A stretch of DNA of 64,000 bases from positions 31,488-95,487 of the IMG/VR virus record IMGVR_UViG_3300032216_001431; one strand, written 5' to 3'. Both the position numbers and the translations under genes were made by a program. Below are positions 30,964-52,915 of the stretch, piece after piece. The stretch comes from a virus. Taxonomy: Duplodnaviria; Caudoviricetes. How positions within the stretch are numbered: position 1 is the first letter of the stretch; each line of letters starts with the position of its first letter. Below the pieces are notes generated by a model. It searched no databases. It had not been told where the DNA came from and saw only the letters and a list, made by a program, of their open reading frames with translations.

Positions 30964-31840
30964 GGGCGGTCTTGGTTATGGTCGTCAGGTTCTAATTTGG
31001 GGGAATAAGTCTGCTGGTAAGTCCTCGTTTTGCCTACAAATGATCGCTAAGGCTCAGCAAGAAGGTAAAACATGTGCGTGGATTGATGCAGAGAATTCTT
31101 ATTCTGCTGAGTGGGCTGCCAAACTTGGTGTTGATTCAGAGAAATTAATTTATTCATCTGCTAAAACTATTAATGATATGGTTGATGTTGGTGTTCAGTT
31201 AATGGGAGCCGGTATTGATATAATAGTAGTAGACTCTATCTCTGCCCTCCTGCCTGCCATTTATTTTGAGAAAGATGGAGAAGAGTTAAAAAATCTTCAG
31301 GACACTAAGCAAATTGGTGCTGAAGCAAAGGACATGACTCATGCCGTTAAGATGCTCAATTACGCGAATAAGGATACGTTACTCGTTCTTATTTCTCAAC
31401 AGAGAAATCAATTTGGGTCTATGCACGCATCACATATCCCAACCGGAGGTATGGCGGTTAAATTCTTTTCCAGTACTGTCGTTAAACTCTGGTCATCCGA
31501 AGCCGAAGCGAATGCTATCAAAAATGGAATTCTTGTTGGTGACAAAATTATTGAGCAGAAGGTCGGACGACCAGTTAACTGGATTGTTGACTACAACAAA
31601 CTTGGACCTCCCAATCTCAGTGGACAGTATGATTTTTACTACCAAGGAAACGCAATCGGCGTTGATGGAGTTGGTGAAACGCTGGACGTTGCGGAAATGA
31701 TGGGTATTGTTCAGCGCGGTGGTGCTTGGTATACAGTTGGAGAAGAGCGGTTGCAAGGTCGTGCAAAGGCTGTTGATTATCTCAGAAACAACCTAGACGT
31801 AGTTAAAAAATTACAGGAGGAAATCTATGCCAGATCTTAA
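30836..31840 (+). CDS. recA: RecA/UvsX-like recombinase
   Basis: GNKSAGKS, WIDAE, IVVDSI, TGG.AVKFFSS, GGAWY. Confidence 0.95.
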   Translation: MTMVAEEILARLDPKTRQRVQLATKVDAQKQQTPSIGLNLALKGGLGYGRQVLIWGNKSAGKSSFCLQMIAKAQQEGKTCAWIDAENSYSAEWAAKLGVDSEKLIYSSAKTINDMVDVGVQLMGAGIDIIVVDSISALLPAIYFEKDGEELKNLQDTKQIGAEAKDMTHAVKMLNYANKDTLLVLISQQRNQFGSMHASHIPTGGMAVKFFSSTVVKLWSSEAEANAIKNGILVGDKIIEQKVGRPVNWIVDYNKLGPPNLSGQYDFYYQGNAIGVDGVGETLDVAEMMGIVQRGGAWYTVGEERLQGRAKAVDYLRNNLDVVKKLQEEIYARS

Positions 31841-47115: not shown

Positions 47116-48156
47116 ATGAAATTATATCGACAAGAAAGCCAACTTTGCTTTGATGACATTTTGTTGGTCCCAAATCCATCTGCTATAGAAAGCAGAAAAG
47201 ACATAGATCTATCTATGTCAATTGGATATGGGAATAGAAAGATTGATTTGTATCTACCTGTTATTTCTGCTCCTATGGATACTGTTACAGAATCTGCAAT
47301 GGCTATTGAAGTTGCAAAATTTGGTGGCCTTGGAATTATTCATAGGTATTCTAAGATTGAAGATCAGGCCGCTCAGGTTTTTGAAGTTTCTAAAAAAGGT
47401 TATGTTGTTGGTGCGTCAGTGCCAACATCTCTTAGAGATTCAGTAATCCCTCAAGTAAAATCTTTAATTTATGTTGGTGCTAAAGTAATTTTAGTAGATA
47501 CTGCAAATGGTCATAATTTTGCTGCAATTAAGGCTGTCTCAGAGATTAGGAAAGAATTTCCAGATATTCATATTATGGCTGGGAATGTTTCTACTTGGGA
47601 TGGATTCATGCATTTGTCTCAGGCCGGGGCTGATTCTGTTCGCGTCGGTATTGGTGGAGGTTCATGTTGTACTACAAGAATAGCGACTGGTCATGGAATT
47701 CCAACTCTGGCTTCTATTATGGAAATTTATGAGTATCAAGAACGTCTAGATCTTCCTACATCTATTATTGCAGATGGAGGAATCAGGAATTCTGGAGACA
47801 TGGTGAAGGCGTTTGCCGCTGGTGCTGATGCAGTTATGGTAGGGTCTATGCTATCTGGTCACACAGAGTCACCGGGTAATGTTTTCAAGGAAGATGGAAA
47901 AGACTATAAGCGACTTCGTGGCATGGCAAGTTCTCATGCTCAAAAAGATTGGCGTGGCTCTGTAAGTGGAGAAGAAGGTATATCAACGAAGGTTTTGTTC
48001 AAGGGTCTAGCAGAAAACACTCTTAATTCAATTAGAAACGGAATTTCAAGTGGCTGTTCCTATGCAGGTGTAGAGAGATTAGAAGAATTAAGCATTACAT
48101 CTCAGTATGTAAAAGTTTCACCTTTATCTGTAAAGGAGAGTTTGCCTCATGTATGA
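47116..48156 (+). CDS. IMP dehydrogenase/GMP reductase family protein, no CBS domains
   Basis: SAPMDTVTE, AGNV, VGIGGGSCCTTR, IADGGI, RGMAS. Confidence 0.9.
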   Translation: MKLYRQESQLCFDDILLVPNPSAIESRKDIDLSMSIGYGNRKIDLYLPVISAPMDTVTESAMAIEVAKFGGLGIIHRYSKIEDQAAQVFEVSKKGYVVGASVPTSLRDSVIPQVKSLIYVGAKVILVDTANGHNFAAIKAVSEIRKEFPDIHIMAGNVSTWDGFMHLSQAGADSVRVGIGGGSCCTTRIATGHGIPTLASIMEIYEYQERLDLPTSIIADGGIRNSGDMVKAFAAGADAVMVGSMLSGHTESPGNVFKEDGKDYKRLRGMASSHAQKDWRGSVSGEEGISTKVLFKGLAENTLNSIRNGISSGCSYAGVERLEELSITSQYVKVSPLSVKESLPHV

Positions 48157-48943: not shown

Positions 48944-49460
48944 AGAATTAGAAGTTGCTGAACGCTTTGACTCTATGAATAGAGTTGTTGAAGAGTTGCT
49001 TAAGGGTAATAATCCTACTCAGATAGCAAAAATTCTTTCTATCAAGCGTGCCACTGTGCTTGAACTTATTGAAGACTGGAAGAATATTGTTCACAATGAT
49101 AATAGTATCCATGTTCGGGCTAGAGAGGCTTTAGCGGCTGCTGATCAGCATTATGCCATGATTATTAATAGAGCATGGGAAACAGTTGAGCAGGCTGATT
49201 CAAATCAACAGTACAGTGTTAAGGCGGGGGCTTTAAAACTAGTCGCAGATACAGAAGCAAAACGTATGGACATGCTTAATCGCGCTGGCCTTTTAGAGAA
49301 TAATGAAATGGCTGACAAGATTATAGACAATGAACGTAAACAAACATTGCTAATGGGTATTCTAAGAGACGTATCTTCACAATGTGATCATTGTAAGTAT
49401 GAGGTTGCACAGAGACTTTCTCAGGTAACAAATCAAGTAGAAGTGATACGAGAAAATTGA
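48936..49460 (+). CDS. Putative terminase small subunit (N-terminal HTH)
   Basis: HTH NPTQIAKILSIKRATV; helical; directly upstream of TerL. Confidence 0.6.
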   Translation: MSKELEVAERFDSMNRVVEELLKGNNPTQIAKILSIKRATVLELIEDWKNIVHNDNSIHVRAREALAAADQHYAMIINRAWETVEQADSNQQYSVKAGALKLVADTEAKRMDMLNRAGLLENNEMADKIIDNERKQTLLMGILRDVSSQCDHCKYEVAQRLSQVTNQVEVIREN

Positions 49461-51292
49461 CAGGTTTTGAGGATTTCCTAGAAGCGTTAGATGAGAACGC
49501 TTTTGAAGAGGTGCCTGTTACGATTGAAGAATTTGTTACTTCAAAAGATTATTTAAACTTGCCACCACTTTCTATAAATCAATATACGATGATTAAGGCT
49601 TCTACTCAAATATATAAAAAAGAAACTTTGATTAAGTTGTTTGGTGAGCAAGAAGGTCAAGCAAGATGGAAGCAAACTTGTAATGAAGTAATTATGCAAT
49701 TGGGTAAAGGTTCTGGTAAGGACTACACTTCTACTATTGCCTGTGCGTACATCGTTTACCTGCTCTTGTGTTTAAAAGATCCAGCACGCTATTATGGAAA
49801 GCCTCCCGGCGACAGTATAGATATTATTAATATTGCTATTAATGCTGTTCAGGCTAACAGAGTTTTCTTCAAAGGTTTCCTAACAAGAATCGACAGGTGC
49901 GCTTGGTTTCAGGGGCGGTATGTTGCAAAAGCAAACAGTATAGAGTTTGATAAAGATATTACAGTACACTCAGGTCACTCCCAGAGAGAATCATGGGAGG
50001 GTTACAACGTAATTGTAGTCATCCTTGACGAGATTTCCGGCTTTGATTTAGAATCAACTAGTGGGCATGAGCAGGCAAAAACTGCAGGCGCTATCTATCG
50101 AATGTATAGGGCTTCAGTAAATTCACGTTTCCCAGATTATGGTAAATTGATTTTGTTGTCTTTCCCACGTTATAAGAAAGATTTTATTCAACAAAGATAC
50201 GATGATGTTGTTGCTGAAAAAGAAACTGTTGTTAGGACACATAGATTTAAATTAGATCCTGACCTTCCAGATGGTTCAGAGAAAAATGAATTTAATATTG
50301 ATTGGGAAGAAGATCATATTCTTTCGTATGCTGTTCCTAAAGTTTTTGCTTTAAAAAGACCCACATGGGATGTTAACCCAACAAGAACTATTGACGATTT
50401 TGCAGTAGACTTTTATACTGATCCAGTAGATGCTCTTTCAAGATTTGCTTGTATGCCTCCAGAAGCAGTGGATGCATTTTTTAGGTCACGCGAAAAAATT
50501 GAAAGAGCCTTCAGGAATTATAATATTGCGGTTGATGAAGATGGCAGGTTTGCAGAATGGTTTCAGCCACAAGAAGATAAGTTATATTTTGTTCACGTTG
50601 ATCTTGCTCAAAAGCATGACCATTGTGCAGTGTCAATGGCGCATGTTGAGAATTGGGTAAACATTAAAATTGGTAATCAAACAAAAGAGGCTGCACCTAG
50701 TATTGTTGTTGATGCTGTAAGGTGGTGGACACCAACAAGTACTCAGACTGTTGATTTTACTGAAGTAAAAGATTATATTATTTCCCTTAAGCATAGAGGG
50801 TTTAATGTTGGAATGGTCACCTTTGACCGCTGGAATTCTTTTGACATGATGCAGCAGTTAAAGGCTTACGGAATGAATGCAGAAGTTCTTTCTGTTGCTA
50901 AAAAACATTATGAAGATATGGCTTTGGCGATTATGGAAGAAAGAGTCGATGGCCCTAATATTAAATTACTTATAGATGAATTGCTTTCTCTCAGAATTGT
51001 TAAAGATAAAATTGATCACCCAAGAAAAGGGAGTAAGGATCTTTCAGATGCTACATGTGGCGCTATTTATAATGCTGTTAGTAGAACGCCTGCGGATCTT
51101 AATCAGGAAGTTCTTATAAAAACTTATGACTATGAAGATTTAGATTTACAAAGGTGGGAGCAAGAGAAAACAGATCGTGGAGTTATTCAATTTCCCGGTC
51201 AAAAAGAAATGCCAAGTGTTCTGCAAGGATTTATGGATTCTTTTCGTGAAGATGATGGACAAGAATTCGTAGATAATTTTACAATATTATAG
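49457..51292 (+). CDS. terL: Terminase large subunit
   Basis: Walker A GKGSGKD, Walker B VILDE, nuclease HVDLA, FDRW, KD.SDA. Confidence 0.92.
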   Translation: MTGFEDFLEALDENAFEEVPVTIEEFVTSKDYLNLPPLSINQYTMIKASTQIYKKETLIKLFGEQEGQARWKQTCNEVIMQLGKGSGKDYTSTIACAYIVYLLLCLKDPARYYGKPPGDSIDIINIAINAVQANRVFFKGFLTRIDRCAWFQGRYVAKANSIEFDKDITVHSGHSQRESWEGYNVIVVILDEISGFDLESTSGHEQAKTAGAIYRMYRASVNSRFPDYGKLILLSFPRYKKDFIQQRYDDVVAEKETVVRTHRFKLDPDLPDGSEKNEFNIDWEEDHILSYAVPKVFALKRPTWDVNPTRTIDDFAVDFYTDPVDALSRFACMPPEAVDAFFRSREKIERAFRNYNIAVDEDGRFAEWFQPQEDKLYFVHVDLAQKHDHCAVSMAHVENWVNIKIGNQTKEAAPSIVVDAVRWWTPTSTQTVDFTEVKDYIISLKHRGFNVGMVTFDRWNSFDMMQQLKAYGMNAEVLSVAKKHYEDMALAIMEERVDGPNIKLLIDELLSLRIVKDKIDHPRKGSKDLSDATCGAIYNAVSRTPADLNQEVLIKTYDYEDLDLQRWEQEKTDRGVIQFPGQKEMPSVLQGFMDSFREDDGQEFVDNFTIL

Positions 51293-51295
51293 TAC

Positions 51296-51368
51296 ACGCC
51301 GGTATCCTAGCGGTTTTGGAAGCGGTCTTATATACCGTGTATCGTGAGTTCGATTCTCACCCGGCGTA
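51296..51368 (+). tRNA. tRNA-Ile, anticodon UAU
   Basis: Acceptor ACGCCGG/CCGGCGT; anticodon arm GCGGT-CTTATAT-ACCGT; T arm GTGAG-TTCGATT-CTCAC; discriminator A; no encoded CCA. Confidence 0.88.
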
Positions 51369-51370
51369 CG

Positions 51371-51490
51371 GAGTTGCGAGAGATGATTCCTTGGGATGGA
51401 TATAGTTACAGTATCCGAAATATCCACGGGAGCAGACAGGGGAGTCCTCTGATGCTGGTGTGCTGTGGAATTTTGCGCCTCTCGCAACTC
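51371..51490 (+). ncRNA. Candidate 120-nt structured RNA of unknown family
   Basis: Perfect 12-bp terminal helix, second helix, two internal hairpins and a possible pseudoknot. Confidence 0.6.
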
Positions 51491-51496
51491 TTAAGA

Positions 51497-51505
51497 TGAT
51501 AGAAT
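51497..51505 (+). promoter_or_regulatory. Extended -10 promoter TGATAGAAT, possibly driving a leaderless HNH mRNA
   Basis: 6 nt upstream of GTG 51512, no RBS. Confidence 0.5.
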
Positions 51506-51511
51506 TGTAGT

Positions 51512-52006
51512 GTGATGGTCCCTAGAAGAGCAGAACGAGTTAAATTAATAAGAGAACGTGACGGCGATCTATGTTCAGTGTGTAGAAAACCGTTTATTAA
51601 TAATTTGGACATTACAATTGAACATTGGATTCCCCGCGCTGCTGGTGGAAGCGATGAATTAGATAATCTTAAACTTTCTCATAAAAAATGTAATGTGGCT
51701 AAGGCTGATATCATTCCAAATCCTGATGGAACATTACCGGAAAAACCAAAAAAGGTTCCTTATTCTAAAAGGCAAACTGAAAAAAAAAGAATTCTTGGGG
51801 AGTTTTGTTATGACTGCCAAGGTGGAAGGAACCTTGAAGAAGGACAGACCTGTGAATTTTGTGGGGCTTTGCCGGGACCAATTGAAAATCCTAGATACCT
51901 AAAGCGTAAGTCTCCAGAATGCGATCATAATATTTTTTGGTGCTGGGCTTGTAGCATTGGTATTGTTGAAAAGAAAAGTGTAACTCAACATTTAATCATA
52001 GGATAA
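51512..52006 (+). CDS. HNH endonuclease with C-terminal Cys clusters
   Basis: RDG..CSVC, TIEHWIP...GG...NL..H..CN..K; three further CxxC pairs. Confidence 0.88.
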   Translation: MMVPRRAERVKLIRERDGDLCSVCRKPFINNLDITIEHWIPRAAGGSDELDNLKLSHKKCNVAKADIIPNPDGTLPEKPKKVPYSKRQTEKKRILGEFCYDCQGGRNLEEGQTCEFCGALPGPIENPRYLKRKSPECDHNIFWCWACSIGIVEKKSVTQHLIIG

Positions 52007-52042
52007 TGTACCTCCCCTGATTTTGTTTTAAATAAATCGGAA

Positions 52043-52051
52043 TGCTATACT
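52043..52051 (+). promoter_or_regulatory. Extended -10 promoter TGCTATACT
   Basis: Intergenic consensus-like match. Confidence 0.5.
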
Positions 52052-52078
52052 TAAGTTACAATATAATTTGGAGTTACC

Positions 52079-52915
52079 TTGACATTCTCTGCTTCATCCA
52101 TCAACAACATTACTACGCCCACTTCTGGAAGTGTTGGGCATCTAAATGATCATGGAATTATTAAAACAGTGCTGAAGGGACATGATGATATTCTTACCTC
52201 CGCTGCGTTGCTAGGTAATAGTCTTTCGGGTGATGCTACAGGATACGTTTCTGGAGCAAAAGTTGTTTTTAGTGCTTCGCCTACGCTGACTTCCCCTTTG
52301 ATAGCAAATTCTGCATTAATAAATAATCCATTGCTAGGTGCAACCGAATTTGATGGGAAAGCCCTTTCTTTTACAGTCAACAGTACTGCTTCAAGCAGGG
52401 GGCCAGTAGCAGTTAATCTTTTTACATCTAATACTGGAGCAACAACATTATTAAATGTAGCAACTGCACAAAACATATTTCCTTCCACAAATCAAACAAT
52501 AAATTTGGCTGCTAATACTACTTATGAAATGGAAATGTGGTTTTCTATCAGCACTACTGGTGCTACTTCTAATTTATTATCTTTAGGATTTGCAATTGGT
52601 GGAACTCTAACATCAATTGGGTATATGGTTCATGTTACGCAAAATGCTACTAGCGCAGTAACCATTACTGCAGCAAATAATCTATGGATTGCTACAAACA
52701 CTTCGACTGCAATTACAGCAGCAGCCGTAACCGCCACATATAGAAATGTTTTTGTAAAAGGCATTGTTCGATCTGGAACTACTGGTACTTTTATTCCACA
52801 AATTACTTATAGCGCAGCACCCGGTGCGGCTCCGGTAGTTGCACCAAATGCTTATATTAAACTTACGCCCTTGGCATCAGATACCGCATTGTCTTCAACG
52901 GCATGGCACGCATAA
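52079..52915 (+). CDS. Ser/Thr/Ala-rich putative virion protein
   Basis: VVFSASPTLTSP fibre-like motif; beta-rich C-terminus. Confidence 0.55.
   Translation: MTFSASSINNITTPTSGSVGHLNDHGIIKTVLKGHDDILTSAALLGNSLSGDATGYVSGAKVVFSASPTLTSPLIANSALINNPLLGATEFDGKALSFTVNSTASSRGPVAVNLFTSNTGATTLLNVATAQNIFPSTNQTINLAANTTYEMEMWFSISTTGATSNLLSLGFAIGGTLTSIGYMVHVTQNATSAVTITAANNLWIATNTSTAITAAAVTATYRNVFVKGIVRSGTTGTFIPQITYSAAPGAAPVVAPNAYIKLTPLASDTALSSTAWHA

Follow-up and report, generated by a model that had tools for sequence, protein, structure and literature searches.

A large family of structured RNAs absent from Rfam 15 is carried by uncultured freshwater phages

A structured RNA encoded directly downstream of the tRNA-Ile(UAU) gene of an uncultured phage represents a large RNA family that is absent from Rfam 15 and is carried by uncultured freshwater phages. 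The window analyzed here is a stretch of 64,000 nt (positions 31,488–95,487 of the IMG/VR virus record IMGVR_UViG_3300032216_001431), and the RNA is present as a single copy in the 95.5-kb record, which is 76% complete. We moderately favor the interpretation that it is a discrete, stable, trans-acting small RNA of about 122 nt that, depending on the family member, is freed by tRNA processing or has a promoter of its own; we infer its size, ends and stability from its anatomy alone. The first-pass annotation had described the element as a structured and uncatalogued non-coding RNA of the plus strand, and this description is supported by the fold, the family alignment and the Rfam search.

The locus is compact (Table 1). 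The terL gene, which codes for a protein of 611 aa, ends 3 nt before the gene for tRNA-Ile(UAU), which encodes no CCA and has its discriminator A at position 51368 (Rfam). The closing helix of the RNA, P1, starts with 2 nt between it and the discriminator. Because only these 2 nt separate discriminator and P1, the RNA must be transcribed together with tRNA-Ile, and it is probably transcribed with terL as well. The co-transcription with the tRNA suggested in the first-pass annotation is thereby supported, as it also is by the short gap between terL and the tRNA. The 3' side of the window RNA has no terminator and no downstream tRNA. The GC content of the RNA is 0.48–0.51 against about 0.35–0.38 in the flanks, in agreement with the earlier description of a GC-rich element. 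A promoter-like sequence, TGGACA-18-TACAAT, was observed in the last codons of terL (51256–51285), and transcription from it would start 3–4 nt before the tRNA; promoter-like matches at this end of terL are not above chance, and the TACAAT hexamer is conserved in relatives but is also coding sequence. A gene of the IMP dehydrogenase/GMP reductase family (47116–48156; PF00478, E 1e-96) is located just upstream of the terminase module.

Table 1. Features of the locus around the small RNA. Positions are those of the window; L012 is a related locus
Feature	Position	Strand	Basis
terL, large terminase gene	49457..51292	+	phrog_2 terminase large subunit (PHROG), E 2.5e-16
tRNA-Ile, anticodon UAU	51296..51369	+	ARAGORN; Rfam tRNA match, 57.3 bits
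Complete small RNA, 122 nt with the P1-extending G.U pair counted	51370..51491	+	helix, fold, homologues
P1 5' arm, GGAGUUGCGAGAG	51370..51382	+	pairs with 51479-51491
Near-invariant block CUUGGGAUGG (consensus CUURGGRUGG)	51390..51399	+	invariant columns; P2 5' strand is 51394-51398
P2 loop, UAGUUAC	51403..51409	+	invariant in all aligned copies; motif demanded by the collecting pattern
P2 3' strand, UAUCC	51412..51416	+	covariance-model register; pairing also in L012
A-rich joining strand	51417-22	+	family register
P3 5' strand, UCCACGG	51423..51429	+	pairs with 51463-51469 in the MFE fold
P4 hairpin inserted in P3, loop AGU	51431..51456	+	51431-34/51453-56 and 51437-42/51446-51
GUGC (51460-63), P3 3' strand (51463-69), GAAU (51468-71)	51460..51471	+	GUGC invariant, GAAU conserved (columns)
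P1 3' arm, CUCUCGCAACUCU	51479..51491	+	pairs with 51370-51382
Extended -10-like box TGATAGAAT, 6 nt past P1	51497..51505	+	conserved in relatives; consensus match only
Variable cassette slot with a 164-aa HNH gene and a 278-aa ORF	51507..52900	+	homology to relatives breaks off here

Members of the family were collected from IMG/VR with the core pattern CTTRGGRTGGNNTAGTTAC in a fixed form, which matched at least 120 contigs, with about 30 matches estimated to arise by chance; an earlier pattern with variable gaps was too loose, returned mostly chance matches and was replaced by the fixed one. With the best flanking helix taken for each match, the matches listed contain 109 distinct elements with a closing helix of at least 8 bp, and 96 distinct copies among them were retained as clear members. 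Since the collecting pattern demanded the core motifs, the invariance of these motifs is partly built in. Four architectures were found: short copies of 73–96 nt, long copies of 101–136 nt with extra hairpins, circularly permuted copies, and permuted copies equipped with a promoter and a terminator. The window copy belongs to the long type. In the permuted copies the order is GUGC..GAAU, then CUURGG..UAGUUAC, and the molecule is closed on its other side by a new helix of 13 bp, which also covaries (CCGAUGUGCCAGC/GCUGGCACAUCGG, CCCAUAUGCUGAC/GUCAGCAUAUGGG). One of them (L187:4760-4935) consists of an 11/12 promoter, the permuted RNA and an intrinsic terminator; two more permuted copies (L265 and L159) are listed with it in the group with a full promoter and an intrinsic terminator. 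Other permuted copies lie before tRNAs (L207, L191, L244, L168 and L108), and in some of them the tRNA follows 2–4 nt later.

A search of the window region against Rfam 15 (4227 models, E<=10) returned the tRNA and, apart from it, nothing but chance hits far short of the gathering scores, and cmscan of ten family loci of the short, long and permuted types returned only tRNAs. The objection that a known Rfam family would remove the novelty of the RNA therefore does not apply, since the proposed cmscan gave no family match; likewise, the statement that the RNA is not a tRNA holds, with no tRNA, tmRNA or Rfam match over it at E<=10. A blastn search of 50,697 cultured-phage records, with the window element and one copy each of the short and permuted types as queries, gave chance hits only. 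Among the genomes of 185,579 prokaryote species, with one genome per species, the core was found in only five MAG contigs of discordant taxa, and the family therefore looks phage-borne. The taxa given for these contigs (L313–L317) are Planctomycetia, Methylococcus, Chitinophaga and Polynucleobacter; the contigs are probably phage DNA that was binned by mistake. The window sequence itself is present in DNA runs from lake, freshwater and aquatic metagenomes, with no RNA run listed. A survey of IMG/VR published in 2023 by Fremin et al. predicted 8,495 unnamed structured-RNA candidates (PMC10690425), and the present family, new relative to Rfam 15, may be among them.

The consensus structure of the family is a three-way junction of helices P1, P2 and P3. 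In an alignment of 25 short copies 92.9% of the consensus pairs are standard; the covariation seen is not matched by any of 500 shuffles of this alignment, and the pairing drops to 29–58% when the 3' partners are shifted by 1–3 columns. All 13 pairs of P1 show double-sided changes in this alignment, with 99.3% of the P1 cells paired, and the closing helix has a length of 11–16 bp across the family. The covariance model R1, built from the same alignment, retrieved 58 copies from 100 pattern loci and a further 12 from loci of TerL relatives. In 51 distinct sequences matched by R1, 99.8% of the P1 positions are paired and all 11 pairs covary. In both the alignment and the R1-matched set, the G.U pairs are seen only when the plus strand is read.

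In P2 the 5' strand, CUURGGRUGG, is near-invariant, and the 3' strand opposite varies and is rich in G.U pairs: the pair R37:Y alternates between A-U and G-C, and R34:Y between A-U, G-U and G-C. In permuted copies, CUUGG faces CCGAG and CUUAG faces CUGAG. The P2 loop has the form NN-UAGUUAC. The 3' strand of P3 begins at the GC of the invariant GUGC and continues into GAAU, and its arms differ between subfamilies yet remain complementary (UCGGGC/GCUUGA, CCUGC/GCAGG, UUCAGCA/UGCUGGA, UUUGCG/UGCAAA and UCUGCA/UGCAGA). The strands that join the helices are variable as well as short, so that conservation is concentrated in the P2 loop, one P2 strand and the top of P3. The first-pass annotation had proposed to collect homologues downstream of terL and to analyze their covariation. 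Such homologues were found; the pairs of P1 and the R:Y pairs of P2 covary, and the arms of P3 stay complementary. MAFFT and RNAalifold applied to mixed long-type copies recovered parts of P1 only, naive all-against-all column covariation was too noisy, and automatic extraction of the P3 arms was confused by GUGC-like strings within P1. Two other readings of the core were considered and rejected. A tiny open reading frame, AUG-NNN-UAG, across the core is shifted in frame or lost in the window copy, L031 and L008, and a CsrA-like or Shine-Dalgarno-like reading of AGGAUG does not agree with the AGGGUG carried by some members.

In the window copy, the 120-nt strand folds at -47.7 kcal/mol, compared with -34.0 +/- 4.1 kcal/mol for 200 dinucleotide shuffles (z -3.4), none of which folds as well. 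Two of the helices proposed in the first-pass annotation were borne out. The closing helix 51371-82/51479-90 is a perfect helix of 12 bp, which the pair G51370.U51491 extends to 13 bp, and its arms covary in relatives. The hairpin AGCA..CAGGGG/CCUCUG..UGCU corresponds to P4, in which the relative L012 has a compensatory change from A-U to G-C (AGCG/CGCU); other relatives carry different hairpins at this position, with the loop G[GA]AGU[UC]C. The family-register fold of the window copy contains P1 (51370-82/51479-91), P2 (51394-98/51412-16) and P3 (51423-29/51463-69, with arms UCCACGG/CUGUGGA) together with P4.

The remaining pairings proposed earlier did not fare as well. ATTCC/GGAAT is complementary, yet it competes with the conserved P3, which needs G51467–A51469. 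TGGATAT/ATATCCA is also complementary, yet it competes with pairings conserved in the family and is lost in L012, which retains the P2 pairing of the window copy. The pseudoknot suggested between 51408-14 and 51460-66 was not confirmed; it overlaps the 3' strand of P3, and only its UAC/GUG part consists of bases invariant in the family. The calculated energies are -39.2 kcal/mol for the nested set of the first-pass annotation, -44.1 kcal/mol for the family-register fold and -49.3 kcal/mol for the MFE fold. Because the tandem repeats GGAU GGAU and UAUCC..AUAUCC permit alternative registers, the inner fold predicted for the window copy is ambiguous, the alternatives differing by no more than about 5 kcal/mol. 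When the filters are switched off, the short-type model R1 aligns P2 and P3 of the window copy in the family register and places UGGAAUU at the 3' strand of the model's P3, at a score of 2.8 bits that is low because of a 39-nt insert; with default filters R1 did not find this long copy.

Relatives of the window TerL in IMG/VR share the gene order terL, tRNA-Ile(UAU) and the RNA element. The element is 100% identical to the window copy in four of these loci (L002, L003, L004 and L011) and 95% identical in L012. Eight further loci (L005–L010, L014 and L047) contain diverged elements with closing-helix arms that are wholly different yet perfectly complementary, for instance GGACUACAAGCA/UGCUUGUAGUCC, GGUUGGAGGUAGG/CCUACCUCCAACC and GAAUGGUAGGUAG/CUACCUACCAUUC. 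In the comparison of the window with L012 the RNA is 95% identical, the tRNA 87%, the HNH gene 83% and the terL DNA 75%; the RNA is thus the most constrained segment of the locus, and selection on it is apparent from these sequence comparisons. In more distant TerL relatives the RNA is located kilobases away from terL, inside tRNA arrays.

The nearest cultured relatives by TerL are Streptomyces phages of 128–130 kb with 62–65% protein identity, such as Gilson (64%), and Gordonia phages are also among the relatives. Genes that follow the RNA, both in the window (51497–51517) and in many other family loci, start about 10 nt past TGnTAnAAT boxes and lack a Shine-Dalgarno sequence; this points to leaderless mRNAs downstream of the RNA. 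The next mRNA in the window looks leaderless because its gene starts about 10 nt past the -10-like box. Based on the TerL relatives in Streptomyces and Gordonia phages and on this spacing of genes and boxes, the window phage is probably an actinophage with an actinobacterial host.

Two mutually exclusive contexts were observed at the 5' end of the RNA. Among the matches listed, 29 of the 96 copies begin 0–2 nt after a tRNA, which is Ile-UAU in 18 cases, a CAU tRNA in seven and Leu-UAA in four; the CAU tRNAs could be either Met or lysidine-type Ile tRNAs, and the preference for these tRNAs may stem from common descent or from a connection with AUA decoding. None of these 29 tRNA-linked copies has a -10 box upstream, while 47 of 66 other copies in the same set have a TAnAAT box that ends 5–9 nt, mostly 6 nt, before P1. 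The 5' end of P1 therefore corresponds to either a transcription start or a site of tRNA 3' processing, and such a coincidence is as expected of a discrete RNA whose ends are predicted to be locked in a helix. On the 3' side, again among the matches listed, 12 of the 96 copies have a tRNA 2–10 nt past their end, 11 are flanked by tRNAs on both sides, and 71 of the 96 are followed by a TAnAAT box 6–17 nt past P1. The distances of 0–2 nt after and 2–10 nt before tRNAs fit the release by tRNA processing that was proposed in the first-pass annotation.

The same boundaries could be read in another way, as a cis-acting processing or boundary element that matures or protects the upstream 3' end, say by blocking exonucleases or by providing an RNase III/E/Z site, and insulates it from the next promoter, with no function in trans. 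The RNA is always at the end of a transcription unit, with a -10-like box shortly after it in those 71 copies and a tRNA directly before it in those 29, and theta ribozymes provide a case of phage RNA devices placed after tRNAs for processing of the 3' trailer (PMC10879173). We nevertheless consider a cis element unlikely. The 47 copies with their own promoter, among the matches listed, have nothing upstream to process, and L187 is a complete gene with promoter, RNA and terminator. A simple boundary hairpin would have no need of approximately 30 near-invariant bases in loops and one strand of P2, and the RNA is more conserved than the preceding tRNA when the window is compared with L012.

For the trans-acting small RNA that we favor, the anatomy suggests the following route. 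The cut that matures the 3' end of tRNA-Ile just past the discriminator would free the 5' end of the RNA, and a cut of RNase Z type after the discriminator of this CCA-less tRNA would leave an RNA with a 5' overhang of 1–2 nt. P1, which joins both ends, could shield them from exonucleases. In other phages the RNA would come from its own promoter, from between two tRNAs, or with its own terminator. The RNA would then act in trans, with the invariant face formed by P2 with its loop and by P3 binding a conserved protein or RNA partner. Matches to antisense targets of the conserved strand within the window are at chance level.

In a more specific version of trans action, the RNA would be a decoy or inhibitor directed against host defence or a host RNA enzyme. 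Pseudo-ToxI and phage anti-CRISPR RNAs are comparable decoys. The phage-restricted distribution, with only the five discordant MAG contigs among 185,579 species genomes, the apparent expression of the RNA as a strong separate unit and the strong constraint on the sequence of an exposed strand and loop are all consistent with this idea. The RNA showed no resemblance to a host RNA or a CRISPR repeat, its P2 loop differs in build from an anticodon loop, and no defence-gene context is known; a decoy role is improbable in our estimate.

In kind, the RNA is closest to the species 1 and 2 RNAs of T4. Unexplained stable RNAs, among them T4 rnaC and rnaD, are a long-known component of phage tRNA clusters. 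Both the T4 RNAs and the window RNA have about 120–140 nt, lie a few nucleotides from tRNA genes and share a transcription unit with them, so that tRNA processing would release both. T4 rnaD starts 1 nt after tRNA-Arg, and the window RNA lies 2 nt past the discriminator of tRNA-Ile. The T4 RNAs are known from one phage group, whereas the present family has a conserved three-way-junction core and includes promoter-driven copies; the T4 rnaC/rnaD region has no core motif in common with the family. The small RNA is a solid lead for biochemistry and not a surprise in kind.

Similarity to YrlA and other Y RNAs (RF02553; Chen et al. 2014, PMC4201824) includes a length of about 100 nt, a helix between the 5' and 3' ends and phage copies near tRNAs. 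The hallmarks of YrlA are a tRNA-like domain with a T arm and D-loop features and the stem motif GNCGAA (PMC4201824). In contrast, the family RNA has neither a tRNA-like T arm nor GNCGAA, and the sequence of its P1 is not conserved. RF02553 gave no match to the window RNA at E<=10, and no Ro/TROVE gene (PF05731), the usual neighbor of a Y RNA gene, was found in the 95-kb record, which is 76% complete. Weak YrlA-like hits were observed in an unannotated gap of 400 nt after the tRNA-Ile of Streptomyces phage Gilson (L318:10378-10780; NC_048742.1, about 66836–67238), which contains repeated GGGUCGGAU modules and has a gene annotated as 'RNA-binding protein' about 2 kb downstream. R1 had no match in Gilson.

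There is a small chance that the family represents a new functional RNA core, either catalytic or self-associating through its two invariant loops in the manner of phi29 pRNA. A new RNA catalyst, self-cleaving or other, with the tRNA-containing transcript as its substrate seems very unlikely to us. The conserved core occurs in circularly permuted form, as it does in hammerhead and twister ribozymes. The core is also very conserved, and its placement right after tRNAs resembles that of the HDV-like theta ribozymes, which reside directly downstream of phage tRNAs and process 3' trailers (PMC10879173); a cut at the 5' end of the RNA would likewise mature the 3' end of the tRNA. Unlike theta ribozymes, the RNA pairs its 5' end with its 3' end in P1 and lacks the nested double pseudoknot, and most family members are not adjacent to tRNAs. 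The HDV models gave no match in the window region (Rfam, E<=10) or in the ten family loci, and no Rfam ribozyme matched at E<=10; the pairing of the ends with each other is also unlike the HDV fold. Two further observations argue against catalysis: the junction strands are short and variable, with conservation placed in hairpin stems and loops, and promoter-driven copies begin at P1 and have no 5' piece to cleave.

A packaging RNA like that of phi29, or a cofactor of TerL or of the HNH protein, had been among the roles suggested in the first-pass annotation. The RNA has about 120 nt, a three-way junction, a helix that joins the ends and two hairpin loops, with UAC/GUG complementarity between them, all of which recalls phi29 pRNA, and in the window lineage it lies between terL and an HNH gene. 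There is no homology between the two RNAs, and outside the window lineage no link to packaging genes was found. In comparison with the intermolecular loop pairing of phi29 pRNA, the loop-loop complementarity of the family comprises only three invariant nucleotides, UAC in the P2 loop and GUG in P3; both being invariant, there is zero covariation to count. The Rfam library includes a phi29 pRNA model, and at E<=10 the search returned only the tRNA and chance-level hits. In distant relatives by TerL the RNA sits in tRNA arrays, other copies lie beside heat-shock, Dps-like and peptidase genes, and most members are in non-terminase contexts. Near-identical relatives have no HNH gene. This leaves the packaging and HNH link unsupported, and we regard such a role as extremely unlikely.

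The flank downstream of the RNA accounts for the presence of the HNH gene. In the window the gene (51512/51515–52006) encodes a protein of 164 aa with a Pfam HNH match at E 9.6e-11, and the 278-aa ORF in the same slot had no family match. Homology of the window to L003, L004 and L011 ends at 51506, right past the TGATAGAAT box, and resumes at about 52900–52914. In these three relatives, with TerL 94–99% identical, RNA 100% identical and no HNH gene, the slot holds about 330 nt in L003, 33 nt in L004 and about 3 kb of other genes in L011; in L002 it holds an HNH gene plus different DNA. The slot at 51507–52900 has the appearance of a hot spot of gene-cassette exchange, with content of 33 nt to 3 kb that differs in each of five near-identical relatives. 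Since relatives with the same RNA lack it, the HNH gene of this variable slot is dispensable and, judging by these genomes, is an inserted mobile cassette and not a partner of the RNA.

HNH genes are nevertheless frequent neighbors of the family: among the matches listed, an HNH ORF follows about 31 of 63 short-type copies and 10 of 33 long-type copies. A gene for a 91-aa HNH protein (phrog_2255), unrelated to the 164-aa HNH of the window, is found directly after many short-type copies, for example at L201:3196-3468, where the order is Hsp20, RNA and HNH, and at about 30 other loci. Behind other copies lie genes of Dps-like or peptidase-like proteins or of the capsid module. The frequent 91-aa HNH gene would fit free-standing homing endonuclease genes that settle by a conserved RNA gene; segB is placed likewise in the tRNA cluster of T4. 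HEARO and the IscB omega RNA also adjoin an HNH gene, in an obligate pairing with an IscB-type HNH-RuvC protein. In contrast to these systems, the HNH proteins next to the family RNA have 91 or 164 aa, belong to two unrelated families, have no RuvC domain and are dispensable, and RF02033 (HEARO) gave no match. The links of the RNA to HNH and terminase genes are incidental.

The perfect 12–13 bp inverted repeats at the borders, next to a flank that is a hot spot of gene insertion, might also suggest an element that functions as DNA, such as the ends of a miniature transposon or a cos or att site, but this is barely credible given one copy per genome, arms that differ by compensatory changes, G.U pairs that would be mismatches in DNA, and conservation that is strand-specific and linked to promoters.

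Another unexplained RNA of phage tRNA clusters is now defined as a large family with a clear consensus fold, three or four architectures and strong constraint. The annotation of an "empty" spacer in many genomes of lake phages is corrected accordingly, and the HNH gene beside the RNA is to be seen as a mobile passenger in a recombination hot spot and not as a part of the packaging module. The family is a concrete target for biochemistry, which could address its ends, its partners and possible catalysis. If it did turn out to be a new functional core, the permutations and the near-invariant core of 30 nt would reflect a precise tertiary fold, and many freshwater phages would employ it on tRNA-containing transcripts or for the capture of a universal host factor.
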